64,000 bases of DNA from positions 21,653 to 85,652 of the forward strand of contig CAZOQJ010000001.1 in assembly GCA_964581905.1 (NCBI GenBank), in the 5' to 3' direction. The stretch comes from an uncultured Pirellulales bacterium. Lineage in GTDB: Bacteria; Planctomycetota; Phycisphaerae; Sedimentisphaerales; Anaerobacaceae. The position numbers were made by a program, and so were the translations under genes. Within the stretch, counting starts at the first letter, position 1. Each line of letters opens with the position of its first letter. The notes below the pieces were generated by a model. That model was not told the origin of the DNA and did not search any database. It saw only the letters and a list, made by a program, of their open reading frames with translations. Shown in pieces: positions 15,184-64,000 of this stretch.

Positions 15184-15193
15184 GACAAGAGTA

Positions 15194-18751: not shown

Positions 18752-18802
18752 TAATTAATTGTATTAATTAGCGTTAGATATATTGATACATAGGTAATAA
18801 TT

Positions 18803-25891: not shown

Positions 25892-25923
25892 AAAAATGCG
25901 CTAAGTGAAAAGATAATATGTAG

Positions 25924-25950
25924 TTAAGTAAATGGATTTTTATACGATAA
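25924..25950 (+). promoter_or_regulatory. sigma-28 (FliA)-type promoter candidate for fliD
   Basis: TTAAGT-N15-CGATAA has the same spacing as the enterobacterial consensus TAAAGTTT-N11-GCCGATAA. About 80 nt upstream of fliD. The same motif and spacing recur upstream of flagellin. Confidence 0.55.
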
Positions 25951-26029
25951 TAATCTTTAGGACGAGACACTTGTAGTAGGCATAGGGAGGCCGCAGAAGC
26001 TCGGGATTTAAAAAGAAAGGTGGACAAAA

Positions 26030-48161: not shown

Positions 48162-48977
48162 ATGTTAGCAATTAAAAACAATTTAATGTCAGTAAATGCT
48201 GCTCGACAGTTGTCGAAAAACTATGAAGCATTAGCCAAGTCTGTCGAAAGGCTGTCCTCCGGTCTGCGAATCAACAGTGCCAAGGACGACGCAGCCGGCC
48301 TGGCTGTCCGTGAGTTAATGCGGGCGGACATCGCCGTTCTTACGCAGGGTGCACGTAATGCACGGGACGGTATTAGTATGCTACAAACTATGGAAGGTGC
48401 TATGGCAGTCATAGATGACGCTCTGGTACGTATGCAGTCACTGGCTGAACAAGCTGCGACTGGTTCGTATTCGTCTGCACAGCGAGGCATTATGCATCAG
48501 GAGTTTGACGAGATGCGGCTTGAGATAGACCGTGTCGCCGCTGCCACAAAGTTCAATGGAATCGCCATGCTCAACAACACAAGCACCAGGTCAATACACT
48601 TTGGTGAGTTAAGCACGGATAAGATTGACATCACCGGCAGCGATATGACCAGTGCTTCAGGCGGCCTTGCCCTTACAGGCCTGACCATTGCTAATACGAC
48701 CAGTGCCAAGGGTGCCTTGGCGACCTTGGAGACCGCAATCGGCACTAAGGACTCTGCTCGTGCCAAGTTCGGTTACAAGATGAACCGTCTGGAGAGCACT
48801 GTAAGCGTTATCAGCATTCAGGCTGAGAATCTCCTGGCAGCTGAGTCGCGTGTCTCTGATGTCGATGTGGCTACCGAGATGGCAGATATGACCAAGAACC
48901 AGGTGTTGGCACAGGCTGGTATCGCGATGCTGTCTCAGGCCAATGCAATCCCGCAGATGGCACTGAACTTACTGTAA
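48162..48977 (+). CDS. fliC: flagellin (short, 271 aa, no large variable domain)
   Basis: AAGGAG RBS. N-terminus RLSSGLRINSAKDDAAGLAVRELMRADI and C-terminus MTKNQVLAQAGIAMLSQANAIPQMALNLL. The central part is Ser/Thr-rich. Confidence 0.96.
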   Translation: MLAIKNNLMSVNAARQLSKNYEALAKSVERLSSGLRINSAKDDAAGLAVRELMRADIAVLTQGARNARDGISMLQTMEGAMAVIDDALVRMQSLAEQAATGSYSSAQRGIMHQEFDEMRLEIDRVAAATKFNGIAMLNNTSTRSIHFGELSTDKIDITGSDMTSASGGLALTGLTIANTTSAKGALATLETAIGTKDSARAKFGYKMNRLESTVSVISIQAENLLAAESRVSDVDVATEMADMTKNQVLAQAGIAMLSQANAIPQMALNLL

Positions 48978-49941: not shown

Positions 49942-50475
49942 TTACATTGCCTTACCTGGTTTGAGGGCTGATATTTGTATCACCGTATCAAGCAAGTTCG
50001 GATTAGTTGTGCTCTTTCTTGTGTAAAAACTTTTTATCCACAGAAAGTGCTCTGAAGATTTGGTTTTGAGAAGAAACTCAATAAGCTGCTTAAGTGTTAG
50101 ATTTTCCAATTTGGTTTCGACACTGACCTCGCAGTGGTTTGAGTCCAGTTGCAATATCTCTTGTTTCATCGTTGCGACTTTTCCTACAAAACCCAGCTCC
50201 GTGGTTATTGACTCTAAAAACGTGAGAACTTCGAATTCTCCTTCCTCCGAGGCAACTTTTCTTTCTATATCATCCAACTTGGCTCGCAAGGCAAGATACT
50301 GTGTGCTCTTTGCTCGAAGCTCGTCAAGCTCTCGTTGTTTTTCAGGGATTACTCGATTGAGCGTCTCTATACGCTCGATAGCAGGCCTGATGCTAAACAC
50401 AAACAGCACCCAGACTGCTGTAAAGACCAGCAGGCCAACAGTCAACCAACGCTCTCTATGTGTCAACCGTATCAT
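49942..50475 (-). CDS. gspM: T2SS assembly-platform protein GspM-like (PilO-like)
   Basis: 177 aa with one N-terminal TM helix, then a coiled coil. Last gene of the gsp block. Confidence 0.6.
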   Translation of the reverse strand: MIRLTHRERWLTVGLLVFTAVWVLFVFSIRPAIERIETLNRVIPEKQRELDELRAKSTQYLALRAKLDDIERKVASEEGEFEVLTFLESITTELGFVGKVATMKQEILQLDSNHCEVSVETKLENLTLKQLIEFLLKTKSSEHFLWIKSFYTRKSTTNPNLLDTVIQISALKPGKAM

Positions 50476-50477
50476 TT

Positions 50478-51941
50478 TTACTCCAGCGTCGTTAATGATA
50501 TTAAAATAGTAAAATGAACCAGCTCGCCGTCATGTTCCCTTCGAATATCCTGGACATCCGCAGTTGAAAATTGTGGTGCATCCTGCAATAGTCGTTGCCA
50601 CTTATACAAGGGTTCAAACGACCGAGAAACCCCTGTCAATCGGACAGAATTGGTAGTTATCAGCATGCTGTCAACATTAATATTTAGCCCTGAAGGGAGA
50701 CTTTTAGTAATCGCATACAGGATTTCAGCTGGCCCAACGGCAGAAGGGCCGAACATCGCATGATTTTTTTGCGAGGATTGCAATTTCTGCTCTAACTGGG
50801 CAAGCGGGTTTACAATATTTTTTTCTTCCGGCAGTGTTTGTTGAAAAATTTCTTTGATTTCGTTTTTTATATGTGTGTATCTCGTTTCTAAATGTGACAA
50901 TCGTATAAATAGTCCAACAAGTGATATAACGGCAATCGCAGCCACAAGTGTTGCGCATATTGTTAAATCCTTTTTCAAGTCCAATGTGGGCTTTACGTCA
51001 GCGTTATCATCCTTAAGAAAATTTACACCCAGAGTTTCCTCAGGTGCCAATGCCCTCAAAGCAAGACCTTCAGCAACACATATTGAGGCATCGCTGTTGC
51101 TATCTGGTGAGCTTTCTACTCTGGCATAAGGGTTGACAGTGATTGCCTGACAGTGCAGATTTTCCTCAACAAGCGTTTCGAAACCGTCATAGGCATGGTT
51201 TCCACTTGCCAGATAAATTCTGGTATCCTCCTCGATTTCGCACCCGAACACTTTTTGCCAGGTAATTTTTGCTTCATTTGACAGCGTTTCCGCAACGCAT
51301 TTTTGAGCTAAACCAGTATCGTTATCGGATGGACTATCGATTATAATATTTCTAACGATTAAAATATTATTGTCCTGAGTAATTGCCAAAGCGAGATAAC
51401 GTTTATCTACATACGCAATAATGGCTTTGCCGGCCGTTATTTCGGGATGATTAACCGTAACCGTCGAATGGATTGCAAAAATTACAGCATCCACAAAAGC
51501 AGGATTCATCCTCGTACCAGCTAATGTATTTAGTCTTTCGTGCAGCGATTCCCTCGCAACCGCTGCAGTGAGAGCAAAATACTCCCCGCCCGGCAGCTGG
51601 TGGTGCGAGCATATCTGGGCAACAATTTCATTCGGTTGTATTGGGAAATTGTGCTCTAATGCGGACTCGGTAAGTTCATGGACTTGTTCTGCATCGGCAG
51701 AACAAGCTGCCAGATTTCGAAAGAAAACAGTATTATGTGGCATTGATATTGCCACTTCCGCACGCCGGTCAAACCCATGCCGGCTGGCTAACGACTTGAG
51801 TATACCCGGCATAGAGTCTGAGCTTCTGCGGGTTGGTGTGCTGAGGGCTTTTTCAATGCGGAACTGTCCATCTGTGCGCGAGACCTGCACCGCACGCAAA
51901 CCGGAAGAACCAAAATCTATACCAATACTTCGCTTAATCAT
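50478..51941 (-). CDS. gspL: T2SS assembly-platform protein GspL-like (PilM-type actin-like domain + TM + PilN-like)
   Basis: 487 aa. N-terminus SIGIDFGSSGLRAVQV (actin-like fold), a mid-protein TM helix ICATLVAAIAVISLVGLFI, and a periplasmic C-terminus. Confidence 0.7.
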   Translation of the reverse strand: MIKRSIGIDFGSSGLRAVQVSRTDGQFRIEKALSTPTRRSSDSMPGILKSLASRHGFDRRAEVAISMPHNTVFFRNLAACSADAEQVHELTESALEHNFPIQPNEIVAQICSHHQLPGGEYFALTAAVARESLHERLNTLAGTRMNPAFVDAVIFAIHSTVTVNHPEITAGKAIIAYVDKRYLALAITQDNNILIVRNIIIDSPSDNDTGLAQKCVAETLSNEAKITWQKVFGCEIEEDTRIYLASGNHAYDGFETLVEENLHCQAITVNPYARVESSPDSNSDASICVAEGLALRALAPEETLGVNFLKDDNADVKPTLDLKKDLTICATLVAAIAVISLVGLFIRLSHLETRYTHIKNEIKEIFQQTLPEEKNIVNPLAQLEQKLQSSQKNHAMFGPSAVGPAEILYAITKSLPSGLNINVDSMLITTNSVRLTGVSRSFEPLYKWQRLLQDAPQFSTADVQDIRREHDGELVHFTILISLTTLE

Positions 51942-51955
51942 TGTTTTTTCGGTTT

Positions 51956-52975
51956 TTATCTAATGGATGCCACAGTTGTAAATCCTTGTAGCTCTTTGTA
52001 TAAAATCACCTCAACGGTTTTCGTTTTCACATTTTTTTTGAGTGTCGCAGATATTTCACGGCTGAGGCAGTCAAAATTTCCCCGTGCTGTGACATGATAG
52101 TATCTATCTTTAGGGCTGACAGTAGCTGTATTTTTAATCGTGTAGTAAACGCTGTCTGTCATTCCGGGAATATCTCGCAGTTCCGTGATGCTGTCAAAGG
52201 GTTTAATTCTTCGCCGGTCAATGATTAGCTGTGCCAATATAGGGTCCATTTTTTCTGACAAACTCTCAATCACTCGCTTCGAAGCACAATTAATGTTGAT
52301 TTCTCCATCGCCGTGGACTGTTACATAATCACGCATGCTGTCAAAAGCATCTGGTGTTACCGCTTTGACCAGCAGGAGTTCTTCAACCGTATCAAGCGGG
52401 GCGTTTTTGCATCTGTATGGGTGGGCTAACCCTGCATAGTAGCCTGACTCTGCTCCTGAATTTTCGTGTTTTATAAAGGGCAGATATGTAACCTCATCAT
52501 CGCTATCGGTCCAATCGATGATTGAGCAGACCAGGCCATAGCCAATATGAGAATGTCCGGCACGCTCCTTATTAATCAGGTCGATTAGCCGAAGTAACTG
52601 TTCTATTCTGTTTCGATTCAATTTGCCGTTCTTATCTTTTAATAGATTCACGTTCAATTTGCCGCTTTCTTCGGCAATAGTTACAGAGCAGTTTCCATCA
52701 CCGACATCGAAGATATTTTCCCCTGTAAATAGATTCGGTACCATCTTGTTTGTATGGAAGTTGTTGACATCCCTGGCAGCAGCGATTGCAATATTCAGTC
52801 CTGCCCTTGCGCAATTTAGTGCCTGCAAGGATTTTCGAAAATCGTCTGCCGTGCGGAGGCTGGTACGGGATTTATAGTTGAAAGCAAGCAGCAGTCCTCC
52901 CAGCATAATGACCATACACAGGACAACTACGACTATAAATCCTCTTTGCTCTGCTTTTACCCGTTTCAGTCTCAT
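51956..52975 (-). CDS. gspK: T2SS minor pseudopilin GspK
   Basis: 339 aa. RGFIVVVVLCMVIMLGGLLLAF leader and ALNCARAGLNIAIAAA. Size and gene order fit GspK. Confidence 0.8.
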   Translation of the reverse strand: MRLKRVKAEQRGFIVVVVLCMVIMLGGLLLAFNYKSRTSLRTADDFRKSLQALNCARAGLNIAIAAARDVNNFHTNKMVPNLFTGENIFDVGDGNCSVTIAEESGKLNVNLLKDKNGKLNRNRIEQLLRLIDLINKERAGHSHIGYGLVCSIIDWTDSDDEVTYLPFIKHENSGAESGYYAGLAHPYRCKNAPLDTVEELLLVKAVTPDAFDSMRDYVTVHGDGEININCASKRVIESLSEKMDPILAQLIIDRRRIKPFDSITELRDIPGMTDSVYYTIKNTATVSPKDRYYHVTARGNFDCLSREISATLKKNVKTKTVEVILYKELQGFTTVASIR

Positions 52976-53697
52976 GGCTTGTTAACCGATACTAATATCT
53001 CTGTTCGAGCCTCTTTACCTTGATTCATTTGGCAGCATACGTATGCGACAGTGCTGCAGTGACATTGTCGGTAATTTTCATCCTCACAGTTGATTCCAAT
53101 TTTTACAGCAAACGGCAGTTTCATCTTGTCTTTAAAATCCCACTTGTTTAGCCATTGCTGTCCGTCAAAAAATGACAATTCAATGCACTCGATGTTTCTT
53201 GCAATCTGTCGCCAGTTTCTTTTTTTCGCAACATTCTCAGATGCGCCGATAAATCTTTCCTGGCTTAAAAAGAGTGTGCCTTTTCTTTTATCAAATTTAT
53301 AAATGACCTCGAATAACCCATCTGTTGCCCCCCGGCCTCCTGAAACCCTGCTCGTAGTTACCAGATGCAAAATTTCCCCGGTTGGTTCGTCAGGGTTGCC
53401 CTTAAAATAATGACTGACTTCATTTTTTTGTGTTTTATTTCCCATCTGAGAAATTGATGTCACCTGGTATGTCTGTTTCTCGTCCGTTCCGGGATACGAG
53501 CAGCGTATTTGTCGGGCCATCTGCTCCAGCACGTTCCGGCCCTGTTGATAGAGTGTCATTTTGGCCTTGCATATTTGTGTTGATTTCGACGTTGCAAAAT
53601 AGCTCCCGTACACCATAGAGACAATAGTAACGATTATCGTCATTGCTACGAGAATTTCGAGTAGTGTAAATCCATCTTTTTTAGACTTACTATTCAT
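52972..53697 (-). CDS. gspJ: T2SS minor pseudopilin GspJ-like
   Basis: 241 aa. Prepilin motif KKDGFTLLEILVAMTIIVTIV and C-terminal KLPFAVKIGI. Confidence 0.65.
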   Translation of the reverse strand: MNSKSKKDGFTLLEILVAMTIIVTIVSMVYGSYFATSKSTQICKAKMTLYQQGRNVLEQMARQIRCSYPGTDEKQTYQVTSISQMGNKTQKNEVSHYFKGNPDEPTGEILHLVTTSRVSGGRGATDGLFEVIYKFDKRKGTLFLSQERFIGASENVAKKRNWRQIARNIECIELSFFDGQQWLNKWDFKDKMKLPFAVKIGINCEDENYRQCHCSTVAYVCCQMNQGKEARTEILVSVNKP

Positions 53698-54154
53698 TTA
53701 ATTTCCTGTCGGCAACGTAAGTTGACATTTGCAGGTGCTTATTGCCCGTGCCCTGTTTCCAGTTTACATCAACAAGTACGCTTCGCAATCCGGCAATATC
53801 TACCTGGCCTGATTGAGACAAGCCCACATTTGTAACCTGAGTTTGCCAGTTCAGTGTTAAGCCGTTACTTTCCACCGTGCCGGAGTTACTTTCTAATTTT
53901 GGGTAGCCAGCAGCCAGGAGCTCTGCAATTTTCTCGTTTGCCAGGAGAACAGCCTGAGAGGTTATTTCTGCTGTCTCGAACATTCTAATGCTGATAAGAT
54001 GCAGCCTGAGCAGCGCCAGCATAGAAATTGAGACGATTGTAAGGGCTATGATAACCTCTATAAAAGTAAAGGCTTTCGTTCGCACAGCCGGTCCTGCCGG
54101 GCGTTTATCTTTACCTGTTGTGTTATCCTTGCTCATCGAGATTCCAGCTTTCAA
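53690..54154 (-). CDS. gspI: T2SS minor pseudopilin GspI-like
   Basis: 154 aa. Prepilin-like KAFTFIEVIIALTIVSISMLALL with Ala rather than Gly at -1. AVLLANEKIAEL is GspI-like. Confidence 0.6.
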   Translation of the reverse strand: MKAGISMSKDNTTGKDKRPAGPAVRTKAFTFIEVIIALTIVSISMLALLRLHLISIRMFETAEITSQAVLLANEKIAELLAAGYPKLESNSGTVESNGLTLNWQTQVTNVGLSQSGQVDIAGLRSVLVDVNWKQGTGNKHLQMSTYVADRKLNE

Positions 54155-54641
54155 TATCAGCGTTGTCCTCTATGCCGCCATCCTCGCCATCTTTGCCATA
54201 GGATTCTAGGTCATAATCTTTGCTCTGAACCCCTGGGCAGATGTAGATATATTTGTTGCCCCATGAGTCTGAGGGCGCTTTATCGAGATAGCCGTCTTTG
54301 TTATATCCCTTTATGCCTGGGTCACGGACAAGAGCTTCAAGCCCCTCGGAAGTAGTTGGAAAACGGCTTGTGTCGGTCTTAAATAAGGCCAATGCAGATT
54401 CGATATTGCGTATATCAATTTTGGCTTTCATCCTCCGGGCCTGCTCGGGCCTGCCTAATATCCTCGGCATAATTATGGTAGCCAAAATACCCAAAATCAC
54501 TACTACAATCATGAGCTCAATTAAGGTAAACCCCATCGATAGTCGATTACCGATTGCCGATTGCCGGTTGATGGCGGTGAATCGAAAATTCCCTGTGTTG
54601 TGTGATTGTTGCTTGTTTTTTCTCATCTTACAGAGCTCCAT
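54123..54641 (-). CDS. gspG: T2SS major pseudopilin GspG with unusually long leader
   Basis: GFTLIELMIVVVILGILATIIMPR and DSWGNKYIYICPG..YDLESYGKDGEDGG are canonical GspG. The start ATG overlaps the gspF stop (TAATG), giving a 37-aa pre-sequence. Confidence 0.9.
   Translation of the reverse strand: MELCKMRKNKQQSHNTGNFRFTAINRQSAIGNRLSMGFTLIELMIVVVILGILATIIMPRILGRPEQARRMKAKIDIRNIESALALFKTDTSRFPTTSEGLEALVRDPGIKGYNKDGYLDKAPSDSWGNKYIYICPGVQSKDYDLESYGKDGEDGGIEDNADIESWNLDEQG
54544..54571 (-). repeat. 7-bp tandem repeat (GCAATCG-like x4) inside the gspG leader codons
   Basis: The plus strand reads CGATTAC CGATTGC CGATTGC CGGTTGA. Two units are perfect and two are degenerate. Confidence 0.8.
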
Positions 54642-55828
54642 TAAAGAATCTGATTTATTTCAAATATAGGCAGTAAAATTGCAAGCACTATAAAGCCTAC
54701 AACGGCACCCATAACAACAAGTATCGCAGGCTCAAGTAGTGAGGTCAGCATTTTAGCTGTGCTCTCGACCTCACCCTCGTACATGTCTGCAATATTTATA
54801 AGACCATCCTCTACGTTTCCACTGACTTGAGCTGTAGCAATAACGTGAAACACAATGGGTGGAAACAACCCTGTTTTCCTTATTGCATTGGCGATAGCAT
54901 CACCCTTGCTAATGCTGTCTTTCACAGCGGTCAGGGCACCTGCAAGGAAGCTGTTTTTAATCACCCCTTTTGCAATCTCCAGTGCCCTAAGTATCGGAAT
55001 ACCGCTTGCAAGGAGTATTCCCAATGTTCTTGTCAGACGTACTATCTCCAGTTTAAGAAAAAGGTTACCAAAGAGGGGCAGCTTTAGTTTGAAGCTATCC
55101 GCAATCAATCTTCCATCTTTGGTTCTTAGCCATGCTCCAATTCCAAGGCAGGCCGTAAAAAGCACAACGGCAATTAACATAAAGTAAGTTTTTATAAGAG
55201 CGCTCGTTGCGATAAGCAATCTCGTGGGCCAGGGAAGAGCTCGATTCATTTCAAGAAAAATCTGCGTTATGCTGGGCACTACGAAAGATAGAAGAAATAC
55301 CACAACTCCGGCTGCAACCACAGTCATCATCGCAGGATACGCTACAGCGGACTTAACCTTACTGGCGAGATGCACACGTTTCTCCAGCATTTCCGCCAGT
55401 CGCAGGAGTATTTCTTCAAGAGTTCCGCTTTCCTCACCTGCGGCCACCATATTTACAAACAAGCTCGAAAAGACGCCTTGGTGTTTCCTAAGCGCATCGG
55501 CCAGTGTGCTGCCGGCATTAACACGGTCAGCAACTTGCTGCATAATTTCTGCAAGTGGATGTTTCTGGGTTCCCAAACGCACTATTCTGCGTTTGGGAAC
55601 ATCTTGTAACTGCTCGACTATTGCAGAAAGAGCAGGTACAAGTGGTAATCCTGCTCGCAACAGTGTCGCCAACTGACGCGCCAGCATACAGATATCTTTT
55701 GTGCTGATTCTTCTGAAAATGTCCCTTTGGTGTGTGTTTACCTGTGTTTCTGTACGGTCATTATTCGCGACAGCTCGACGTGCCGTGACCAGCTTGTTAC
55801 TTAACAGGTTTTGTTCAGCTACCGACAC
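54641..55828 (-). CDS. gspF: T2SS inner-membrane platform protein GspF
   Basis: 395 aa. Duplicated GspF/PilC domain (LATLLRAGLPLVPAL.. and LGILLASGIPILRALE) with three TM segments. Confidence 0.92.
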   Translation of the reverse strand: MSVAEQNLLSNKLVTARRAVANNDRTETQVNTHQRDIFRRISTKDICMLARQLATLLRAGLPLVPALSAIVEQLQDVPKRRIVRLGTQKHPLAEIMQQVADRVNAGSTLADALRKHQGVFSSLFVNMVAAGEESGTLEEILLRLAEMLEKRVHLASKVKSAVAYPAMMTVVAAGVVVFLLSFVVPSITQIFLEMNRALPWPTRLLIATSALIKTYFMLIAVVLFTACLGIGAWLRTKDGRLIADSFKLKLPLFGNLFLKLEIVRLTRTLGILLASGIPILRALEIAKGVIKNSFLAGALTAVKDSISKGDAIANAIRKTGLFPPIVFHVIATAQVSGNVEDGLINIADMYEGEVESTAKMLTSLLEPAILVVMGAVVGFIVLAILLPIFEINQIL

Positions 55829-57410
55829 GTTCAGTTACTCCTATGCTTGCCTGGGCGCTATCCTGTGTGACCCTGCATACTTCTTCAAGAGTGGTGTCAC
55901 CGGCCAATACCTTACGTAACCCATCCTCTCGCAGGGTGCTCATGCCTTTTTCAACGGCAACTTCTTTTATAATGTGCGAAGCGCTTCGTTTTACTATTAG
56001 TTCCTTGATATCGTCATCAACGACCAGCAGTTCAAAGATTCCTGTCCTTCCCAGATATCCTGTTTCAAGACAGTTCTCGCAGCCACGTCCTTTATAGAAC
56101 TGTGTGCCCGGCGCCGATATTTTCTCAAATTCACTGCATAGAGAAATTACCTGCTTATCCGGGCTGTATGGTCTTTTGCATTGTGGACAGTTGATTCGCA
56201 GGAGCCGCTGGGCCATAACTGCGGCGACCGACGATGAAATCAGGTAAGGTTCAATACCCATATCAATCAGTCGTGTTACCGCTGAGGCTGAGTCGTTTGT
56301 GTGCAAGGTGCTTAAAACCAGGTGACCGGTAAGTGAAGCTTGAATGGCAATCTGGGCGGTTTCGGTATCACGAATTTCTCCTATCATAATCACATCGGGG
56401 TCCTGCCTGAGAATGTGTCGCAGACAATTGGCAAACGTAAGATTTATTTTCGGCTTTATCTGCATTTGCCCAACACCGGGCAATTGATATTCTATTGGGT
56501 CTTCAACTGTAAGGATGTTTCGTTCTTCGCGGTTAAGTTCGTTCATAGCTGCATAGAGGGTAGTTGTCTTGCCGCTTCCTGTAGGACCGGTGAGCAAAAT
56601 TATACCATGCGGCAATCTAATCAGGTTCTTGAAGTGATTAAGTATATTCGGACAAAATCCTATCTCATCCAGGCCCAGTTTGGAGTTGCTCTTATCCAGC
56701 AGTCTCAGCATTACTCGCTCGCCGCCCAATGTAGGAATGACGGAAACTCTAATATCCACGAGGTTCTGGCCTATTTTAATTCGGCTTTGGCCGTCTTGTG
56801 GTAATCTTCGTTCGGCAATATTAAGATTTGCCATAATTTTCAATCGTGAAATGAGTGCTGCAATCTGCTGCTTCGGCAAAGTCAATATATCGTGCAACAC
56901 TCCATCAACCCGGAAGCGTATTCGCATTTCATTTTCGTATGGTTCGATATGAATATCACTGGCCCGGCTGTGCACCGCCTGGAAGAAGATTTTATTGACT
57001 AATTTTATGATGGGGGCCTTATTGGCGATATTGAGCAGGTCTTCAGCCCGAGTTTGAATGGGACTTCCGTCAACATCATCGTCATTGGCTGATAAATCTT
57101 GCGCATCAATGTTTGCACCGTCACTTTCCATATTAGTGCTTTGATAGTAACAGCGGCTTATGGCCTGTTCTATTTCGGAGGCGGGGCAGACAACTCGGCT
57201 GCACGGCTGGGCTAAGATGCTCGAAATTGCGTCGTATGCTTCTATATTGAGCGGCTCTGCCAGGGCGATTGCAGTCTGTCCGTTTTCCAGTGTGATTGGA
57301 ATAGCACACTGCTTTTTAAGAAACTCAAGCGGCAGCTTCCTTACAAGCTGCGGGTTCAACTGCTCCGGCAGTATAGTGTCCAAATACTGATTTGTTGTTT
57401 GTTTTTCCAA
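55815..57410 (-). CDS. gspE: T2SS ATPase GspE
   Basis: 531 aa. Walker A LTGPTGSGKTTTLYA, Asp/His boxes, and tetracysteine CPQCKRP..GCENC. Confidence 0.96.
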   Translation of the reverse strand: MEKQTTNQYLDTILPEQLNPQLVRKLPLEFLKKQCAIPITLENGQTAIALAEPLNIEAYDAISSILAQPCSRVVCPASEIEQAISRCYYQSTNMESDGANIDAQDLSANDDDVDGSPIQTRAEDLLNIANKAPIIKLVNKIFFQAVHSRASDIHIEPYENEMRIRFRVDGVLHDILTLPKQQIAALISRLKIMANLNIAERRLPQDGQSRIKIGQNLVDIRVSVIPTLGGERVMLRLLDKSNSKLGLDEIGFCPNILNHFKNLIRLPHGIILLTGPTGSGKTTTLYAAMNELNREERNILTVEDPIEYQLPGVGQMQIKPKINLTFANCLRHILRQDPDVIMIGEIRDTETAQIAIQASLTGHLVLSTLHTNDSASAVTRLIDMGIEPYLISSSVAAVMAQRLLRINCPQCKRPYSPDKQVISLCSEFEKISAPGTQFYKGRGCENCLETGYLGRTGIFELLVVDDDIKELIVKRSASHIIKEVAVEKGMSTLREDGLRKVLAGDTTLEEVCRVTQDSAQASIGVTERVGS

Positions 57411-57434
57411 ATTCGGTACTCACCAATGCTACTC

Positions 57435-57486
57435 TGCCCCCCCGCTCTTGCCCCTTAGGGGCTGCGGGGGCTACGAAGCACGAGTC
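57435..57486 (+). repeat. GC-rich nested-hairpin element ending in GCTGCGGGGGCTACGAAGCACGAGTC (copy 2)
   Basis: Outer stem GCCCCC(CC)GC..GCGGGGGC and inner GCCCC-TTA-GGGGC. The 3' half is near-identical to 32267..32296. Lies in the gspD-gspE spacer. Confidence 0.8.
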
Positions 57487-57540
57487 GGCTTTCTTATCCA
57501 TAGGACGCCTTACGGCGCAACCGAAAAAGTTATCCGGTTC

Positions 57541-59601
57541 TTAGTTCTCCTTGATGTTTTTCTCAAGTTCTTGCAGTTCTGGTTTCATTTCATCTTTCTT
57601 CTTCTCGGTTATCTGGTCTAAATCCTCCTGGTTACTCAGGACATACGGCGTTATAAATATGAGCAGATTCGTTTTCTGCACTTCATCTTTATTGTGCTTG
57701 AACAGGTTGCCAAGTATGGGAATGTCACCGACAAAGGGTATTTTCTTTTCAACAGTAGTTTTGTCATCGCGAATTAGTCCACCGATGACGATAGTCGAGC
57801 CGGAATTCATGGAAACAACGGTCTGTGCCTGTCTTTTAGCCGTTGTCGGAGTATCGGAGGAAGCGGTGGTTTCAATAAGCTTTGTGAACTCGCTGTCAAT
57901 TTCGAGCCTGACCAGGCCGCCCTGACTGATATGCGGCACTATCTCCAGACTGATTCCAACGTCTTTGTATTCGTATGTTTTTATCACGGTTGGAGTAAGT
58001 AAGTCGGTTGTTTCGGTAATTCTTGACTCGGTAACAAATGGCCTGTTTTCACCCACGATTATGCTGGCCTTTTGATGATTTGAGGTCATGATATGTGGCG
58101 TTGAAAGAATATTAACGCCGGTCTGTTTCTCCAACGCCGTTATTATTGCGCCGATGTTCGTAGTTGTGCCGCTTTTCTTCCATGCGCCGACACTTAGTCC
58201 TTCGAGGTCTCCACTTGCGAAATCCACGCGCGGACCAAAATTTGTTGACGCAAAAAATCGAATACTACTTTCTACAGCGTCATCGAGCGTTGCCCAGTCG
58301 ATACCTATTTCTTTTAAGCCCTCCTCGCTGACCTCCATAATGAGCATTTCAACTAAAACCTGCTCACGAATTATATCGAGCTTTTCGACAATCTCCGAGA
58401 TTACCTCAAAGTCCTGAGCTGAAGCACTGATTATCAGTGCGTTTGTACCTTCATCGGCGGCAATCTGAACCCCCTGTGGGGCTTCGAGTGCACCGGAGAT
58501 TCCTAAGTTCATAACAGCTTTGGTGAGTGATTCAGCAGTTTCTTTGGCTGGTGCGTTCTTAAGGTACATTACGCGAACATTAGCAGCTCTGCTCGGACGT
58601 TGAATATCAAGCTGATTTGCTAATTTTTTGATTGTTTCGGTGTCCTGAGTGTTAGCAACAACAATAAGAGAATTTGTTCTTACATCAGGTAAAATTTGGA
58701 TACCTCTGTTAATCTGTGGCGCATCCCGGCTACGTGCCGTCCGTGAAGGAACAGACTTGCTTTTCAGCATTATGCTGGTTATCTGTTCACTGAGAACCTG
58801 TGCGGAAGCATATTCCAATCCAATTACGGCAACTTGCTCTTTTGAGCCTGTTACGTCAAGTTTCTGAATAATTTTGGCAACATGATGTATATTTGAAGAT
58901 GCATCTGTAATCAAAATCGAATTCGTTCGGGGGTAGGTTGCCATATATGAGCTTGTGGCTAAAAGCGGCTTAATAATCTGACTTACTTCTGTAACATCAG
59001 CATATTTCAACGGAATAATCTGAGTAACAATAGAATCACTTTCAGGGATTTCCGACGGTTTGCTGCCAATGCGAACCTGTAAATTACGCTTGGAAGCTTC
59101 TGCTCTTGGGACTATTTTCACAAGGTCTCTAGCTGGCACAGCTGCATAGCCTTTTACTTCCAGAATCGATTCCAAAACCTTATAAATTTCACCAAGACGT
59201 ATCTTTGTAGGCGACATAACCGTAACAGTGCCGCGGACACTATCATCTACAATAAAATTAACCCCGGTTATATCTCCAATGGTCTTGAGCATAATCCGAA
59301 TATCAACCTGGTCGAAGTTTACAGATACAAGCTCATCAGCCATACCCGGATTGGTAAGTGCAGGCAGATTTACCCCCGCGTCTTGCTGTCGCAAGACAGC
59401 AGCGGGGGTATCAGAGCTCAATTGCTCTGCGACGTTGGTGGAGCTGTCCGCAAAGCTTATACAAAATATACAAATAAGACAGAAAAGACTTTTCGGCCTA
59501 CGGCGGGCTCCTCCCAGATGAGTTAACGGCTGTGATTTTCGCCTGTTTATATTTAAGTTCTTTAGGGGCATTGGTTTTACCTGCTCACCTGAAGTTCTCA
59601 T
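57541..59601 (-). CDS. gspD: T2SS outer-membrane secretin GspD
   Basis: 686 aa. N0-N3 domains and secretin core (TPHIMTSNHQKASIIVGENRPF, IVIGGLIRDD..KIPFVGDIPILGNLFK). The exact start is uncertain. Confidence 0.92.
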   Translation of the reverse strand: MRTSGEQVKPMPLKNLNINRRKSQPLTHLGGARRRPKSLFCLICIFCISFADSSTNVAEQLSSDTPAAVLRQQDAGVNLPALTNPGMADELVSVNFDQVDIRIMLKTIGDITGVNFIVDDSVRGTVTVMSPTKIRLGEIYKVLESILEVKGYAAVPARDLVKIVPRAEASKRNLQVRIGSKPSEIPESDSIVTQIIPLKYADVTEVSQIIKPLLATSSYMATYPRTNSILITDASSNIHHVAKIIQKLDVTGSKEQVAVIGLEYASAQVLSEQITSIMLKSKSVPSRTARSRDAPQINRGIQILPDVRTNSLIVVANTQDTETIKKLANQLDIQRPSRAANVRVMYLKNAPAKETAESLTKAVMNLGISGALEAPQGVQIAADEGTNALIISASAQDFEVISEIVEKLDIIREQVLVEMLIMEVSEEGLKEIGIDWATLDDAVESSIRFFASTNFGPRVDFASGDLEGLSVGAWKKSGTTTNIGAIITALEKQTGVNILSTPHIMTSNHQKASIIVGENRPFVTESRITETTDLLTPTVIKTYEYKDVGISLEIVPHISQGGLVRLEIDSEFTKLIETTASSDTPTTAKRQAQTVVSMNSGSTIVIGGLIRDDKTTVEKKIPFVGDIPILGNLFKHNKDEVQKTNLLIFITPYVLSNQEDLDQITEKKKDEMKPELQELEKNIKEN

Positions 59602-59613
59602 GCTGCTAACAAT

Positions 59614-60528
59614 TTACTGCAAAGAAAATGAGAATCTTTTAGTTTCATTACCACGCAACAGTTCTAAATTCATAGTTGCCTGTGACCTTGCCTTCTTGAA
59701 AATCTGGTAAGCTTTCTGCTTACTTGTTAATCGGTGGCCATTAACCATACGAATAACATCACCGTTTCTTAAGCCGATATGTTTCGCCGCTGGTATGTTT
59801 TCCAGGCCTGTTATTCTAAGTCCTTCTACTCGGTTGTCCGCGAAGCAAAGCTCGATGAGCGCCTTCTTCAGTATTGCCTCTACATATCCTATCCTGGTTT
59901 GAATTTTGACAGGGTCTTGCTCCTGTGGCGAATTGGTTTTCACCCCTGAGGGGCTATTATTGCTCGTCTGGCATGAAGATGCCCGGGCATTATTATCATC
60001 GTTGCTGCTGTACTTTCCATTGTTGAGACCTAATATTTTTCTTTCTCCGTTATGTACCAGAGTTACTGTATCTGTGTCTATGCCTTCAATGCGAGAGTTT
60101 CTGACCGTTTGGCCTATCTTGTAGAGGTCAAGCTCACTGGTTTTAAGGTCTTTTATGACAGCCCTCGAAACTGGTGGGCTGCCGGATATGGTGCCGAATA
60201 ATGCCAGCCCCAATTCCTCGGAAGCTGACTGCCAAGAGCCGGTAGGATTACTCATTGATGACCGTTTGCCTGTGTTCGTTTGGTCTGAAGTGCCGAATGG
60301 ATTTCTTTCTATGATATCAGCATAATCTTCCTGCGACAAAACAGGTGCTTCGATAGTTTTTCTTACACAGGCTTTGTCCCCACCCAATGCTGAGGCTGGG
60401 ACCAGGCCCTTTTTAATGCGCTCAGGCAACAGCACTTTTCCGGCAATTACATAACCCAACGCCAAGACAAGCACTAACTTGCTTATAGACAGAACCTTAT
60501 GAATATACAATATGTTATCTTTTTTCAT
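59614..60528 (-). CDS. gspC: T2SS protein GspC-like (TM + PDZ domain)
   Basis: 304 aa. N-terminal TM helix and C-terminal PDZ-like GLRITGLENIPAAKHIGLRNGDVIRMVNGHRL. Directly upstream of gspD. Confidence 0.65.
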   Translation of the reverse strand: MKKDNILYIHKVLSISKLVLVLALGYVIAGKVLLPERIKKGLVPASALGGDKACVRKTIEAPVLSQEDYADIIERNPFGTSDQTNTGKRSSMSNPTGSWQSASEELGLALFGTISGSPPVSRAVIKDLKTSELDLYKIGQTVRNSRIEGIDTDTVTLVHNGERKILGLNNGKYSSNDDNNARASSCQTSNNSPSGVKTNSPQEQDPVKIQTRIGYVEAILKKALIELCFADNRVEGLRITGLENIPAAKHIGLRNGDVIRMVNGHRLTSKQKAYQIFKKARSQATMNLELLRGNETKRFSFSLQ

Positions 60529-60705
60529 TTGAACACCCCTTCTCTGCCTTAAAATTTATCGTCCTGCTGTCAACCGTACTTAAGCCGAATCCTCCCTATC
60601 AGCTTTGTATATACGTTCACAGCAATATCGTGGTTGTGATGAGGCTATTTATGGGGCTAAGCAGGCACTTGCAGATGGACTCGCATAATAATTCGCTTCG
60701 TTACC

Positions 60706-61560
60706 TTAAGCGAGCACTATAGCTATCATGAAATAGCAGATGTTAGCAAGACCATGAAACAAGATTGGTGCGAGTAGCGATTTGGTGCGGATGAACAACC
60801 AGCCAAGAATCAAGCCAGGTAGAAACGTCCAGACCGATATTATCTGACCTTGGACTATTATGTGAGCGGCTGCAAAACAAGCGGCCGATAATAGTATGCT
60901 TATCCACATTCCGTCGCCATAGCGTCCCGTCGCCATAGCTATGGAGCGTCGGCGACTTTGGAGCGTCGGCGACTGCTGTAGCCGATATTGCTCTGATTCT
61001 ACCGTGCGTATTAACCTCAATATATTACCTTGCACATAACCCCTGAAAAATACTTCTTCAGCTACAGCAACGTACATAAACTGATAAAATATCCAGTAAG
61101 CCAGGTTTTGTCCCTCCGGCAGCACAGGACGCAGAGGCAAGTTTAATCCACAGGACCTTAGCAACGAACACCCAAAAAAGATTGCAGGAAAGACAAATAT
61201 ACAGGTCCAGCCAAGCACCGAAAGCGAATATCTAATCTGTTTGATGTTAAATCCTATCTTAGCAAACCTCCTTTTCTTAATTGCTGTTGGTATAATTGCC
61301 GCAGCAACCAGAGTACCTGGAGTTATAAACCAGCCAGCTCCGGAGAGAGAAGGGTTGCCGTTAAAGGCCGCGATTGCTAGAATTGCGGCAATCGTTACGA
61401 AGATGGTCTCTATGAGTAAAGATATATCGAGTTGCTTTAATCTGTTACTAAAAAGTTGTGCCGACCAGATGGTCGGCAGCAAATCGGTAATCTCAGAAAC
61501 CAATTTTGCGAAAAGATTGCAAAATGGTAGCTTACTTACATGACTGGGTAAATAGTCCAT
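60706..61560 (-). CDS. CPBP-family (CAAX/Abi-type) intramembrane protease
   Basis: The ATG at 61560 lies 2 nt after the upstream stop. Catalytic motifs VAEEVFFRGY (EExxxR), FAAAHII (FxxxH) and LFHGLANI (HxxxN/D). Polytopic membrane protein. Confidence 0.85.
   Translation of the reverse strand: MDYLPSHVSKLPFCNLFAKLVSEITDLLPTIWSAQLFSNRLKQLDISLLIETIFVTIAAILAIAAFNGNPSLSGAGWFITPGTLVAAAIIPTAIKKRRFAKIGFNIKQIRYSLSVLGWTCIFVFPAIFFGCSLLRSCGLNLPLRPVLPEGQNLAYWIFYQFMYVAVAEEVFFRGYVQGNILRLIRTVESEQYRLQQSPTLQSRRRSIAMATGRYGDGMWISILLSAACFAAAHIIVQGQIISVWTFLPGLILGWLFIRTKSLLAPILFHGLANICYFMIAIVLA
60911..60974 (-). repeat. two back-to-back DNA tandem duplications (13+3 nt x2, 15+2 nt x2) inside the CPBP gene
   Basis: CCGTCGCCATAGC gtc CCGTCGCCATAGC tat GGAGCGTCGGCGACT tt GGAGCGTCGGCGACT. 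The total of 66 nt keeps the frame. Confidence 0.85.
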
Positions 61561-61562
61561 TT

Positions 61563-64000
61563 TTAACATTCGCTTCTCGCTGTATTGCGTGCTTTCCGCT
61601 TTCGTGCATCTCGGCACGTAATTACTATCATCACCATAATATACCCCACGTATGGCAGTAAAAATTCGACAATGTTGCCCTGGCGGTTAGGAGACATTGC
61701 GCAACCTCCACCGCCGCCGCCACCTCCTCCGATGATATCACCAACAGAGCCGCCAACGATAAATTGTGTCAAGTGTGTAGTCTTGAAACGTAGAGCATGT
61801 AAGGTCGAAGATATCTCGATATTCTCAATGTCTGTTATCCCTTGCTGACTGAGTGTGCCGGTAAGCGGATTATACCAGTATGCTGAAGTTGGATTATCAG
61901 AGTTCGAAACCTCATATGGTATGGTGATTGTAACCGGCTGGTCGAAATTTATCCCGCTCGGCCCGAATTCGTATGGCAGACTGAAACACTCAAGCGAAAA
62001 CTCTGGTGGATTTTTTACCCTTGATATCGTAATCTTTATATCACATGCATAAGCCCCTGCTGGCACTATGATAGAAACATCGTTCACACCATCTATGTTA
62101 GCTGGCTCAGTACCGACTGTTTCGTCTAAAGAAGTAGAAGCATCCTTTGATGCTAATGCGTTAGATTCTATGAAAGTGCTTCCAGCATAATAAATATCTG
62201 TACTTGTGTTTCTACTATCAGCCCATACCATATACGGATGGCCGTATATGTCTGCTCCAATTGCCGGTTCACTTTGGTTCGCATTCGAGCCGTCGTCGCC
62301 TATGAGCGCATTTGTTTTACTGCTGGAACCTGCCTCAACAAAGTACAAATCTGTATCTGTATTGCGTTCATCCTGCCAACACGCGAAAACCTTTAAGTTA
62401 TTGCCTGTGCTGCCTGTAACAGTAACAGTTGGTTGCCGCTGGTCGGCGCTGGAGGTATCGTCTATAATAGAACTGCCTGTCAAAGGACTGGCTGGCAAGC
62501 CATTTGAAGATGCATAATATATGTCCCTATTGCCGGATGTATCATCAACCCACAGCAAATGCAAAATGGACCCAATAGCTTCAGTAGCAATTGCAGGACT
62601 TGATTGGTTATTTGCATTGCTTACTATCGCCACATTAGTCCAGGGGCCATTGTTTGAAGCCGCTCCATAAATGTCATTTGAGCCGCCTCTTGCATCTGTC
62701 CACACTACGTAAATCGTATTGTCAGAGTCTGCAACAACAGCTGGTTCGGTTTGGTCGGAGCTATCAGAGGTTATTCGTGAAATTGTTGTTACAAAATCGT
62801 TGCTCGATGAAGCTACATAGATATCCTGATTACCTGCTTGGTCATCCTGCCAGACAACGTATGCAGTCTTCGATACAGAGCTGTCAACAACTATAGCAGG
62901 ATTGACCTGATTGTCGTTAGAGTCGGTGATACTTTTTTCGGTAGCCCAGTTTATTCCGTCAGTAGACGTCGATATGTAGATATCCCAATTTTCCCTCCTG
63001 TTATCCTGCCATACCACGTAGAGCTTGTCATCAGCATCTACCGCAATAGCAGCGTTACACTGGTCAGTATTATTACTTGTTAGCTGAACGCTGCTGTCAA
63101 AGTTGTTTGCTCCCGCTGTAAGTTTGCCGATATATACATCTCGACTGCCCGTTTGACCTGCATGCCAGGCTACCCAAATGTCACCGCTGCTGTCTCGTAC
63201 CGTTGAAGGTGTATCACTTGAGTTATCTGAGCCTGAATTGACCTTCTTATTTTGGCCGAATGAACGCATCTCGGTCTGGAAGGAGTATGAATACTCACTC
63301 ATGACATTGCCTGCGATGTCTGTAGCGTTTACCGTAACAGCAACTGTCTGGTCGAAATCAAACATGTCATTCGCCTGATAGATGAACCTATAATCAGCTT
63401 TCGTGCCCACCCTGCGGCAATGGCCGTATTCACTGCTATAGTCGGCTGTATTACCTGTGTACACAGTATTGTTGTTGACTTTAATAGTTATCGAATTGGC
63501 ATCAACGCCTTTGCCGGAATCTACGATATGTAACGTTACTAAATTATTTATGGGCACTTGTATAGCATCAGCAGCCGGCGAACAGTTATTAACGCTCGGT
63601 GCAGACGTATCAGCGCTAACAGTTATTGTAATCGATTCAGAATCTTGGGCGTTGTCGTCGCTTGCAATGAAAGTAACTTCATAACTGCCTATTTGGCCGT
63701 CATTTGGAGTCCAGCTAAAGGTTTGGTTGGCAAACGTCGCTCCGCTGGGTAAACCTCCTGTTGAATACGTTATTGTATCGCTGTCAGGGTCGGTTGCGCT
63801 CACAGTGAAAGTTAAAGAATCGTCTGTGTAAACTGATTGGTTGCCAATTGTACTCAGTACAGGTGCTCGGTTAGTATTGCTTACTGTTATGGCAATCGTC
63901 TCAGAATCCTGGGCCTGACCATCGCTGGCAGTAAAGGTTACCTGGTGGTTTCCTGCCTGATTGTAACCGGGCGTCCATGTAAATGCCTGGCCGACAAATA
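61563..64000 (-). CDS. large secreted/surface protein (5' end outside the window): Ig/cadherin-like repeats + 7-bladed propeller-like repeats + Gly9-Cys/TM/basic C-terminal tail
   Basis: I translated the frame upstream of the tracked GTG and it stays open to position 64000, adding a second copy of the F.W.P...Q.G...VTF.ASDG.AQDSE.I.ITV repeat. There are seven repeats ending in DIY/DVY/DLY (e.g. YVVWQDNRRENWDIYISTSTDG). C-terminus GGGGGGGGGC-AMSPNRQGN-IVEFLLPYVGYIMVMIVIT-CRDARKRKARN. Confidence 0.8.
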   Translation of the reverse strand, partial: FVGQAFTWTPGYNQAGNHQVTFTASDGQAQDSETIAITVSNTNRAPVLSTIGNQSVYTDDSLTFTVSATDPDSDTITYSTGGLPSGATFANQTFSWTPNDGQIGSYEVTFIASDDNAQDSESITITVSADTSAPSVNNCSPAADAIQVPINNLVTLHIVDSGKGVDANSITIKVNNNTVYTGNTADYSSEYGHCRRVGTKADYRFIYQANDMFDFDQTVAVTVNATDIAGNVMSEYSYSFQTEMRSFGQNKKVNSGSDNSSDTPSTVRDSSGDIWVAWHAGQTGSRDVYIGKLTAGANNFDSSVQLTSNNTDQCNAAIAVDADDKLYVVWQDNRRENWDIYISTSTDGINWATEKSITDSNDNQVNPAIVVDSSVSKTAYVVWQDDQAGNQDIYVASSSNDFVTTISRITSDSSDQTEPAVVADSDNTIYVVWTDARGGSNDIYGAASNNGPWTNVAIVSNANNQSSPAIATEAIGSILHLLWVDDTSGNRDIYYASSNGLPASPLTGSSIIDDTSSADQRQPTVTVTGSTGNNLKVFACWQDERNTDTDLYFVEAGSSSKTNALIGDDGSNANQSEPAIGADIYGHPYMVWADSRNTSTDIYYAGSTFIESNALASKDASTSLDETVGTEPANIDGVNDVSIIVPAGAYACDIKITISRVKNPPEFSLECFSLPYEFGPSGINFDQPVTITIPYEVSNSDNPTSAYWYNPLTGTLSQQGITDIENIEISSTLHALRFKTTHLTQFIVGGSVGDIIGGGGGGGGGCAMSPNRQGNIVEFLLPYVGYIMVMIVITCRDARKRKARNTARSEC

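Follow-up and report, generated by a model that had tools for sequence, protein, structure and literature searches.

The stretch of DNA analyzed here (the window) comprises 64,000 nucleotides (nt) of contig CAZOQJ010000001.1 from an uncultured Pirellulales bacterium, and we examined a candidate protein-sorting locus at positions 49942-64000. On the minus strand, a gene for a very large protein with a distinctive C-terminal tail (the cargo) is followed by a gene for a CPBP-family intramembrane protease and then by genes of a type II secretion system (T2SS), gspC-D-E-F-G-I-J-K-L-M. A preliminary description of this DNA had proposed that cargo, protease, and T2SS form a new sorting system; every element that it described was present on the minus strand, and its coordinates were confirmed. 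The same arrangement was observed in dozens of independent contigs with protein identities of 35-100%, indicating that it did not arise by chance.

We analyzed the junction between the cargo and protease genes. The cargo stop codon occupies 61565-61563, and the protease reading frame ends at 60706. The preliminary description had placed the protease start 2 nt past the cargo stop, and an ATG is indeed present there, at 61560; however, an in-frame ATG at 61569 (MLKMDY...), which shares 7 nt with the final two codons of the cargo, is probably the true start. The ATGTTAA junction created by this overlap (61563-61569, A-ATG-T-TAA) was kept in most of 27 protease-adjacent relatives with a Cys-terminated cargo, and three relatives (L013, L058, and L088) lack the downstream ATG, which leaves the overlapping ATG as their only possible start. 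Because this overlapping start and stop recur in relatives, the two genes are almost certainly translationally coupled. The overlap of the protease ATG with the Cys and stop codons of the cargo also explains the KC or EC ending of many tails; for the same reason, we considered but rejected a function for the terminal Cys of the cargo, which here ends in SEC. The protease gene is separated from the start of gspC (60528) by 177 nt. A scan of this gap for promoters and terminators found no site within it, which neither proves nor disproves co-transcription.

The conservation of the arrangement was assessed in two independent directions, one anchored on the protease in metagenome contigs and the other anchored on the tail in 185,579 GTDB species genomes. 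For the latter, a degenerate DNA pattern was designed by hand and chosen on the basis of its recall at known loci. The pattern gave 97 matches, and 80 true tails remained once ~17 chance matches in GC-rich genomes (e.g., Streptomyces) had been filtered out by translation. In the protease-anchored scan, a tail-bearing cargo lay directly upstream in 41 of the 57 loci with upstream sequence, and gspC lay directly downstream in 39 of the 47 loci with downstream sequence. In the tail-anchored scan, the protease adjoined the cargo in 43 of the 67 loci with enough flanking sequence, and gspC then followed in 30 of 37 protease-adjacent loci. Tail-bearing cargos and this CPBP subfamily, whose phylogenetic co-occurrence the preliminary description had suggested checking, were found side by side at most of these loci in both scans. 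Hosts of the 80 true tails were labeled Planctomycetota, Phycisphaerae/Phycisphaerales, Sedimentisphaerales, or "Pirellulales," with the exception of one contig (L175, CAYGBE010000174.1) labeled "uncultured archaeon." This contig carries a typical planctomycete cargo-protease pair, and its archaeal label is therefore probably wrong. Many of the "Pirellulales" labels stand beside Sedimentisphaerales or Phycisphaerae labels on very similar sequences. The features of the locus are listed in Table 1.

Table 1. Features of the cargo, protease, and T2SS genes in the window
Feature	Position	Strand	Basis or remark
Cargo gene, 3' part	61563-64000	-	811 codons visible (61566-63998) plus stop; open at window end
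Last globular cargo domain, GAIN_B/ZU5-like beta-sandwich (MAIN-type)	61746-62165	-	AlphaFold2 (AF2) and Foldseek
His-Leu-Thr, candidate autoproteolysis motif HX(S/T)	61767-61775	-	Turn between last two MAIN strands
Nine-glycine run, flexible linker and signature	61704-61730	-	Sequence; AF2-predicted disordered
Tail Cys, presumed lipidation site	61701-61703	-	Invariant in 41 distinct tails and 59 homologs
Polar spacer AMSPNRQGN, 9 residues	61674-61700	-	Family consensus S-[MIV]-S-x3-[QE]-G-x
Membrane helix IVEFLLPYVGYIMVMIVITC, ~20 residues	61614-61673	-	Near-invariant Glu, invariant Pro-Tyr
Cytoplasmic basic cluster RDARKRKARNTAR	61575-61613	-	Asp invariant
Mrt-like CPBP (Rce1-family) glutamic intramembrane protease	60706-61569	-	287 aa from ATG 61569, or 284 aa from ATG 61560
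Catalytic motif 1, EEVFFR (EExxxR)	61042-61059	-	E168-E169-x3-R173, invariant in 55 homologs
Motif 2, FAAAH (FxxxH)	60862-60876	-	F229-x3-H233, invariant in 55 homologs
Motif 3, HGLAN (HxxxN)	60742-60756	-	H269-x3-N273, invariant in 55 homologs
Lineage-specific loop insertion between motifs 1 and 2	60911-60972	-	Contains two short tandem duplications, one of 17 nt (x2) and one of 13 nt (x2, spacing 16 nt)
gspC (T2SSC and PDZ)	59614-60528	-	Best NCBIfam NF041515 GspC_delta, 96.9 bits (cut-off 150); Pfam T2SSC, PDZ
gspD, secretin	57541-59601	-	TIGR02517, 487 bits (cut-off 351, exceeded)
gspE, ATPase	55815-57410	-	TIGR02533, 660.5 bits (cut-off 630, exceeded)
gspF, platform protein	54641-55828	-	TIGR02120, 363 bits (cut-off 424); Pfam T2SSF twice
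gspG, major pseudopilin	54123-54641	-	TIGR01710, 141 bits (cut-off 89, exceeded)
gspI, minor pseudopilin	53690-54154	-	39.4 bits (cut-off 44.35)
gspJ, minor pseudopilin	52972-53697	-	Weak match
gspK, minor pseudopilin	51956-52975	-	116.8 bits (cut-off 130)
gspL, PilM/GspL/PilN-type	50478-51941	-	PilM_2, GspL_C, and PilN; recognizable below cut-off
gspM	49942-50475	-	Weak match

The protease (identical to a 287-aa gene call, P0001) matched PF02517 with 63 bits, against a gathering cut-off of 22.4, and its EExxxR, FxxxH, and HxxxN motifs are intact, as had been described. We compared the window protease and 14 relatives with 18,950 NCBIfam models. All 15 subfamily members matched myxosortase models best (MrtP, Mrt_core, MrtC, MrtS, MrtJ, MrtZ, and MrtX), with E-values of up to 1e-28 for MrtP and up to 3e-25 for Mrt_core, and other CPBP families scored 22-47 bits. 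The window protease itself scored 74.6 bits with MrtP, 69.4 with Mrt_core (cut-off 100), 66.7 with MrtS, 61.1 with MrtC, and 44.6 with MrtJ (cut-off 75). The comparison of the protease with myxosortase and other CPBP models, suggested in the preliminary description, came out closest to the myxosortases, although below every curated cut-off. Its Mrt_core score is lowered by the loop insertion between motifs 1 and 2, as insertion-free relatives reach 78-84 bits. The two duplications in this loop together preserve the reading frame, and close relatives carry different insertions at the same place. As far as sequence can tell, the protease resembles an Mrt enzyme, yet it stands outside every named family. 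The subfamily comprised 927 proteins at E ≤ 0.001, the top 120 of which were all at least 51% identical, and where its members are named at all, their names do not go beyond "CAAX/CPBP family" or "lysostaphin resistance A-like." Searching PDB sequences with the protease profile gave no match, and Foldseek matches of the protease model to ABC transporters (E > 0.4) were set aside as meaningless in view of the poor model.

We next turn to the C-terminal tail, which in the last 70 residues of the window cargo reads ...THLTQFIVGGSVGDII-GGGGGGGGG-C-AMSPNRQGN-IVEFLLPYVGYIMVMIVITC-RDARKRKARNTARSEC-stop. In an AF2 model of a 200-residue C-terminal query, the Gly-Cys segment was predicted to be disordered and the membrane segment corresponded to a long helix (residues 165-197). 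We found 51 distinct tails beside protease homologs and aligned 41 of them, giving the consensus G(n)-C-S-[MIV]-S-x3-[QE]-G-x-I-V-E-F-L-L-P-Y-I-G-L-x-V-V-M-x-I-L-K-x-R-D-x-R-x-R-K, in which the Cys, the Pro-Tyr pair, and the Asp are invariant. Most relatives have a poly-Gly run before the Cys, with a length of 5 to 14 residues or more. The Cys is presumably lipidated, with cleavage just after it, by analogy with MYXO-CTERM and MrtX (PMC11980579). None of the named CTERM models matched the window tail at E-values up to 10. Among the 41 tails, 29 gave subthreshold matches to JDVT-CTERM (best E 0.015) and two gave very weak matches to MYXO-CTERM (E 0.23 or worse); apart from the weak JDVT-CTERM matches, no sorting-class model rose above noise. 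The statement in the preliminary description that the tail fits no named CTERM class thus holds for NCBIfam release 20, in which no model detects the window tail.

To see how the tail is distributed, we searched 1.84 billion representative proteins exhaustively with its profile. This search gave 198 tail-bearing protein clusters, and the match always lay at the extreme C-terminus. Among the matches of at least 400 aa within the best 150 of the 198 clusters, all were homologous to the window cargo in the body of the protein too, from its Ig-like repeats onward, as were 78 of the 80 tail-bearing genome loci. A word-indexed search of proteins, also run with the tail profile, yielded 12 short gene fragments from the cargo family and nothing else; on long proteins it was uninformative. 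None of the other open reading frames in the 64-kb window carries such a tail. These results indicate that the tail is confined to one protein family, whose members combine a variable N-terminal region with a C-terminal module that is conserved (Ig repeats, propeller, last domain, and tail). The preliminary description had suggested a scan for further tail-bearing proteins; many were found in relatives, but all belong to this single homologous family, and the idea that the tail is a general tag on unrelated proteins was rejected.

One to five tail genes were detected per genome. The genome MohnsGC08_bin89 carries at least five, two beside the protease and three without it, and eight other assembled genomes carry two or three each. 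A second, far more divergent version of the cassette was present in L100, L102, L104, L169, and L177, with the tail C-[AD]-[IM]-S...GNVIE-[FY]-[LM]-LPY. Compared with the window, its protease is ~42% identical, its GspD ~52% (in four of the five loci), and its GspE ~60% (in two of the five), and in four of five assembled genomes it is found together with other tail-bearing paralogs. An argument from the co-variation of tail and protease subtypes was dropped, because several genomes contain a cassette together with orphan tails of other subtypes and the remainder is confounded by shared ancestry.

The cargo gene runs off the end of the window, and its full length (1619 aa) was obtained from an identical contig (L008). 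The protein consists of a Sec-type signal peptide, a variable N-terminal region, He_PIG and Big_9 immunoglobulin (Ig)-like repeats (Pfam), beta-propeller repeats (NCBIfam), a MAIN domain, and the Gly-Cys tail. Its N-terminus in L008 is signal-like (MANTMDTSKPACGGGHEPSRQFVLMFFSLLAIGANLPSKGFA|AN), and by a crude rule, signal-like N-termini were found in 38 of 52 related full-length reading frames. In the AF2 model of the C-terminal query, pLDDT was 84.7 overall and exceeded 90 in the MAIN domain, which occupies the 140 residues before the Gly run. Foldseek matched this domain in the PDB to the ankyrin ZU5 domain (E 3e-5, target TM 0.56-0.62), to UNC5b, and to the GAIN domains of BAI3, CELSR1, and BAI2, all with probability 1.00. 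A PDB sequence search gave ankyrin-2 ZU5 at E 0.0035, in weak agreement with the fold match, and precomputed PF00791 matches exist for many cargo homologs.

In the same model, the His-Leu-Thr motif was placed between the predicted strands 122-131 and 134-139. Among 224 distinct tail-bearing sequences, 213 have the motif (HFT in 178, HFS in 18, and HLT in 17), ~25 residues ahead of the tail Cys, and its His is invariant. MAIN and GAIN domains are cut between X and S/T of HX(S/T), and the two fragments stay non-covalently associated (Brogan & Rudner, bioRxiv 10.64898/2026.05.12.724683). PIDD-type ZU5 domains behave likewise, and cleavage at HF/S has been described for ZU5 (PMC3210808). Judging from the conserved motif and the predicted fold, H-[FL]-[TS] is a probable autoproteolysis site in the last domain of the cargo. 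MAIN domains typically sit between large ectodomains and a surface anchor (bioRxiv 10.64898/2026.05.12.724683). When compared with that preprint, the domain order of the cargo is the canonical one of signal peptide, ectodomains, MAIN domain, and surface anchor, which provides an independent argument that the tail is a surface anchor.

The gsp genes are tightly packed, with overlaps or short gaps. The preliminary description had called the T2SS complete. Although ten genes from gspC to gspM are present, gspH, gspN, and the prepilin peptidase gene gspO are not in the block, so that "complete" was slightly generous.

Elsewhere in the window (15110-28402, 42277-43863, and 48162-48977) there are flagellar genes, encoding FliD, a FliK-like protein, and flagellin, and beside them genes for two giant multi-domain proteins (1213 and 2362 aa) of the glycosyltransferase/methyltransferase type. 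Together, these genes possibly form a flagellin-glycosylation island.

With moderate confidence, we interpret the cargo, protease, and gsp genes as a dedicated surface-display cassette of the Cys-tail/myxosortase-family protease/T2SS class. The proposal in the preliminary description that the locus is a new member of this class agrees with the Mrt models as best matches, the tripartite tail, and the conserved linkage. In the proposed mechanism, the cargo would cross the inner membrane through Sec by means of its N-terminal signal peptide and would be retained there by its C-terminal helix, with the basic cluster predicted on the cytoplasmic side. The invariant Cys at the end of the poly-Gly linker, ~10 residues before the helix, would then be modified, probably by lipidation. 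By analogy with MrtX, the coupled CPBP protease would recognize the conserved helix (Glu...Leu-Pro-Tyr) and remove it distal to the Cys. MrtX cleaves MYXO-CTERM proteins in a Cys-dependent manner, and the T2SS delivers the product to the cell surface (PMC11980579). Gene linkage, together with the precedents of MYXO-CTERM and GlyGly-CTERM, suggests that the downstream T2SS carries the folded, lipid-anchored cargo to the surface. The fold and motif of the MAIN domain suggest in addition that it cleaves itself. Owing to this MAIN/GAIN-like autoproteolytic domain, the large ectodomain (beta-helix, Ig repeats, and propeller) would probably be held non-covalently on the anchor and could be shed. In MAIN proteins, force separates the cleaved fragments (bioRxiv 10.64898/2026.05.12.724683).

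Several observations weigh against this model. None of the 15 subfamily members reached a curated Mrt cut-off (69-84 bits for Mrt_core, NF040914, against 100), the AF2 model of the protease (pLDDT 63, pTM 0.37) was too poor for its substrate groove to be inspected, and the block contains no gene for a lipid transferase. A spacer of 9-12 residues separates the Cys from the helix, unlike in the spacerless Synerg-CTERM tail. Approximately one-third of the tail-bearing genes have no adjacent protease, and approximately one-fifth of the cargo-protease pairs have no neighboring T2SS; in L140 (5648-6594; metagenome-assembled genome MohnsGC08_bin191), the cargo is followed directly by gspC with no protease between them. 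Furthermore, all of the source genomes were assembled from metagenomes or single cells.

Protease scores below all Mrt cut-offs and the many tail-bearing paralogs without a protease neighbor would fit an arrangement in which the tail is a permanent membrane anchor, holding the cargo in the inner membrane so that it faces the periplasm, and in which the CPBP protein is unrelated (serving, e.g., envelope housekeeping or immunity) and simply co-transcribed. We consider this unlikely. A plain anchor needs neither an invariant Cys nor a poly-Gly run, the start/stop overlap recurs across many divergent relatives, and the closest characterized relatives of the protease are sorting proteases; the adjacent T2SS and the MAIN domain, typically found before surface anchors, also point to surface display. 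A clean-up function for the protease was likewise weighed. Here, the MAIN domain would cleave itself, the T2SS would secrete or shed the ectodomain, and the protease would only clear the remaining membrane stub (last strand, Gly linker, Cys, and helix). The MAIN/GAIN-like fold and the retention of H-[FL]-[TS] in nearly all tail-bearing sequences agree with such a function, as does the parting of MAIN fragments under force. However, it would leave the invariant Cys and the Gly run without a role, MAIN fragments normally stay associated, a genuine anchor typically follows the domain, and the Mrt precedent is one of anchoring, so that we regard this function as quite unlikely.

A subclade that has retained the protease and T2SS but has no cargo (L060, L063, L066, L068, L070, L075, and L080) raised the question of whether a T2SS component, or some other set of clients, is what the protease acts on, in which case the cargo would be the main secreted substrate of the T2SS and not a substrate of the protease. 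In L066 (5787-6050) and L080 (510-890), however, a decayed tail remnant (...CLMRNNLALPYPGQMVIITTLRLLVTQNRKGLNITRYK) lies just upstream of the protease, with a score reached by none of 2000 shuffles, indicating that the cargo gene was lost secondarily. Some cargo-protease pairs, moreover, have no T2SS beside them, and the clients could be orphan cargo paralogs located elsewhere in the genome; we give this explanation only a slim chance. Exosortase-type processing, tied to the EpsI-like and polysaccharide genes upstream of the cargo in related loci, is very improbable. Of 28 loci with sufficient sequence, 19 (e.g., L005, 3179-3916, minus strand) carry an EpsI-like, exosortase-associated gene in divergent orientation upstream of the cargo. 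This gene scores 37.5 bits with TIGR02914 (cut-off 42.8) and matches the C-terminal domain of XrtD, but the tail lacks a PEP motif and is not matched by any exosortase-linked CTERM model, and no exosortase gene was found within 10 kb in the neighborhoods of L003 and L005/L006. In these neighborhoods, which correspond to sequence beyond the window end at 64000, the EpsI-like gene is followed by polysaccharide flippase and methyltransferase genes, with a deacetylase gene in addition in L005/L006.

The surface-display cassette was compared with known sorting systems. JDVT-CTERM/MrtJ (Haft, bioRxiv 10.1101/2023.06.07.544157) is similar in its tripartite Cys tail with a conserved Pro in the helix, in the dedicated cargo gene that adjoins a CPBP-family protease, and in having few clients per genome. 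It differs in several respects. Matches to the JDVT-CTERM model (NF033191) were far below significance here, and none came from the window tail. The signature here is Gly(n)-Cys...Glu-x3-Pro-Tyr, with the Pro 16 residues after the Cys, whereas the Asp-Pro of JDVT-CTERM lies 9 residues after it. The subfamily scored 44.6-63 bits with MrtJ (NF033192; cut-off 75), its hosts are Planctomycetota and not Pseudomonadota, its clients all come from a single family of homologs, and a T2SS operon is fused to the locus. In MYXO-CTERM with MrtX, MrtC, and MrtP (PMC11980579; Haft preprint), a Cys signature, a helix, and a basic cluster are likewise combined with an Rce1-family glutamic protease; the core of the protease here matched Mrt_core, MrtP, and MrtC best, and GspC matched a delta/myxobacterial-type model best. 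The T2SS is needed for the surface delivery of MYXO-CTERM proteins, and here a T2SS is encoded in the locus itself. By contrast, MrtX serves dozens of unrelated clients in a housekeeping capacity and is unlinked to client or T2SS genes, and the MYXO-CTERM tail (TIGR03901) often has GCGC and a helix without charged or Pro residues, whereas a single signature Cys and a helix with Glu and Pro-Tyr are found here. The restriction of the tail to one family brings the system closer to the dedicated JDVT-CTERM/MrtJ than to the housekeeping MYXO-CTERM/MrtX; with several paralogs of a single cargo family, it stands between the one-client and the many-client system.

Synerg-CTERM/MrtS (Haft preprint) shares a Gly/Ser-rich signature with an abrupt end at a single invariant Cys, a helix that contains an invariant Pro, and a correlation of the protease with a T2SS cassette, which in that case is divergent and co-distributed. 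Its tail has no spacer between Cys and helix, and its T2SS link was drawn from phylogenetic profiles, whereas here it is an operon fusion; the Synergistota-type GspC model gave only 34 bits (cut-off 200) and MrtS 63-70 bits (cut-off 130). GlyGly-CTERM/rhombosortase (PMC6219818, PMC3237569) likewise combines a Gly-rich signature with a helix and a basic cluster, and intramembrane cleavage is followed by T2SS-dependent surface localization, the order of events proposed here by analogy. That system, however, uses a rhomboid serine protease and has no invariant Cys, and no rhombosortase is encoded here. The MAIN surface proteins of Brogan & Rudner (bioRxiv 10.64898/2026.05.12.724683) are, like the cargo, large proteins with a signal peptide, adhesion or enzymatic domains, a GAIN_B-like sandwich with HX(S/T) in the last beta-turn, and an anchor. 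Most of their anchors are LPXTG-sortase signals, cell-wall-binding domains, or S-layer homology domains, and the proteins come mainly from Bacillota, whereas here a diderm planctomycete would use as anchor a Cys tail served by a CPBP protease and a T2SS.

The preliminary description had regarded the side-by-side encoding of cargo, protease, and T2SS as unusually explicit. The linkage is widely conserved, but client-protease adjacency (JDVT) and the co-distribution of Mrt proteases with T2SS (Synerg) have already been described (Haft, bioRxiv 10.1101/2023.06.07.544157), so that the arrangement is less unprecedented than had been thought. What appears to be new is the Planctomycetota subfamily with a tail signature not captured by NCBIfam release 20, the physical fusion of the protease with a T2SS operon, and the confinement of the tail to a single family of MAIN-domain proteins. 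A full-text literature search found no paper linking Planctomycetes to CPBP proteases or such tails beyond general papers on sorting systems; in text searches, Planctomycetes were mentioned in neither the Haft preprint nor the MAIN-domain preprint, and CTERM tails were not found in the latter.

On a more specific level, the surface-display cassette may represent a self-contained, co-inherited module of Planctomycetota. Such a module would unite in one operon a force-releasable MAIN-domain adhesin or enzyme, its own Mrt-like protease for the unnamed Gly(n)-Cys...Glu-x3-Pro-Tyr tail, and a T2SS specialized for this cargo family, with divergent cassettes and orphan cargos coexisting in single genomes. 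We offer this only tentatively, as a possibility to be taken seriously rather than as the probable state of affairs. If true, it would be the first genetic fusion of a sorting protease and a T2SS into one unit and the first link of GAIN-like autoproteolysis to Cys-tail sorting in a diderm bacterium.

Proteins of this kind are currently annotated only as "CAAX/CPBP family protease" and "hypothetical protein." If the surface-display model is correct, the myxosortase class would extend to Planctomycetota and would include a tail signature missed by all current models. The short tail and the compact cargo-protease pair would make the heterologous Escherichia coli cleavage assay used for MrtX directly applicable. 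The fusion of the protease with the T2SS operon would constitute natural genetic evidence for their functional coupling, which until now has come from experiments in Myxococcus and from phylogenetic profiles in Synergistota. Finally, a GAIN-like MAIN domain placed before a lipid-type anchor in a diderm bacterium suggests how sediment planctomycetes may display and shed very large adhesins or polysaccharide-active enzymes.

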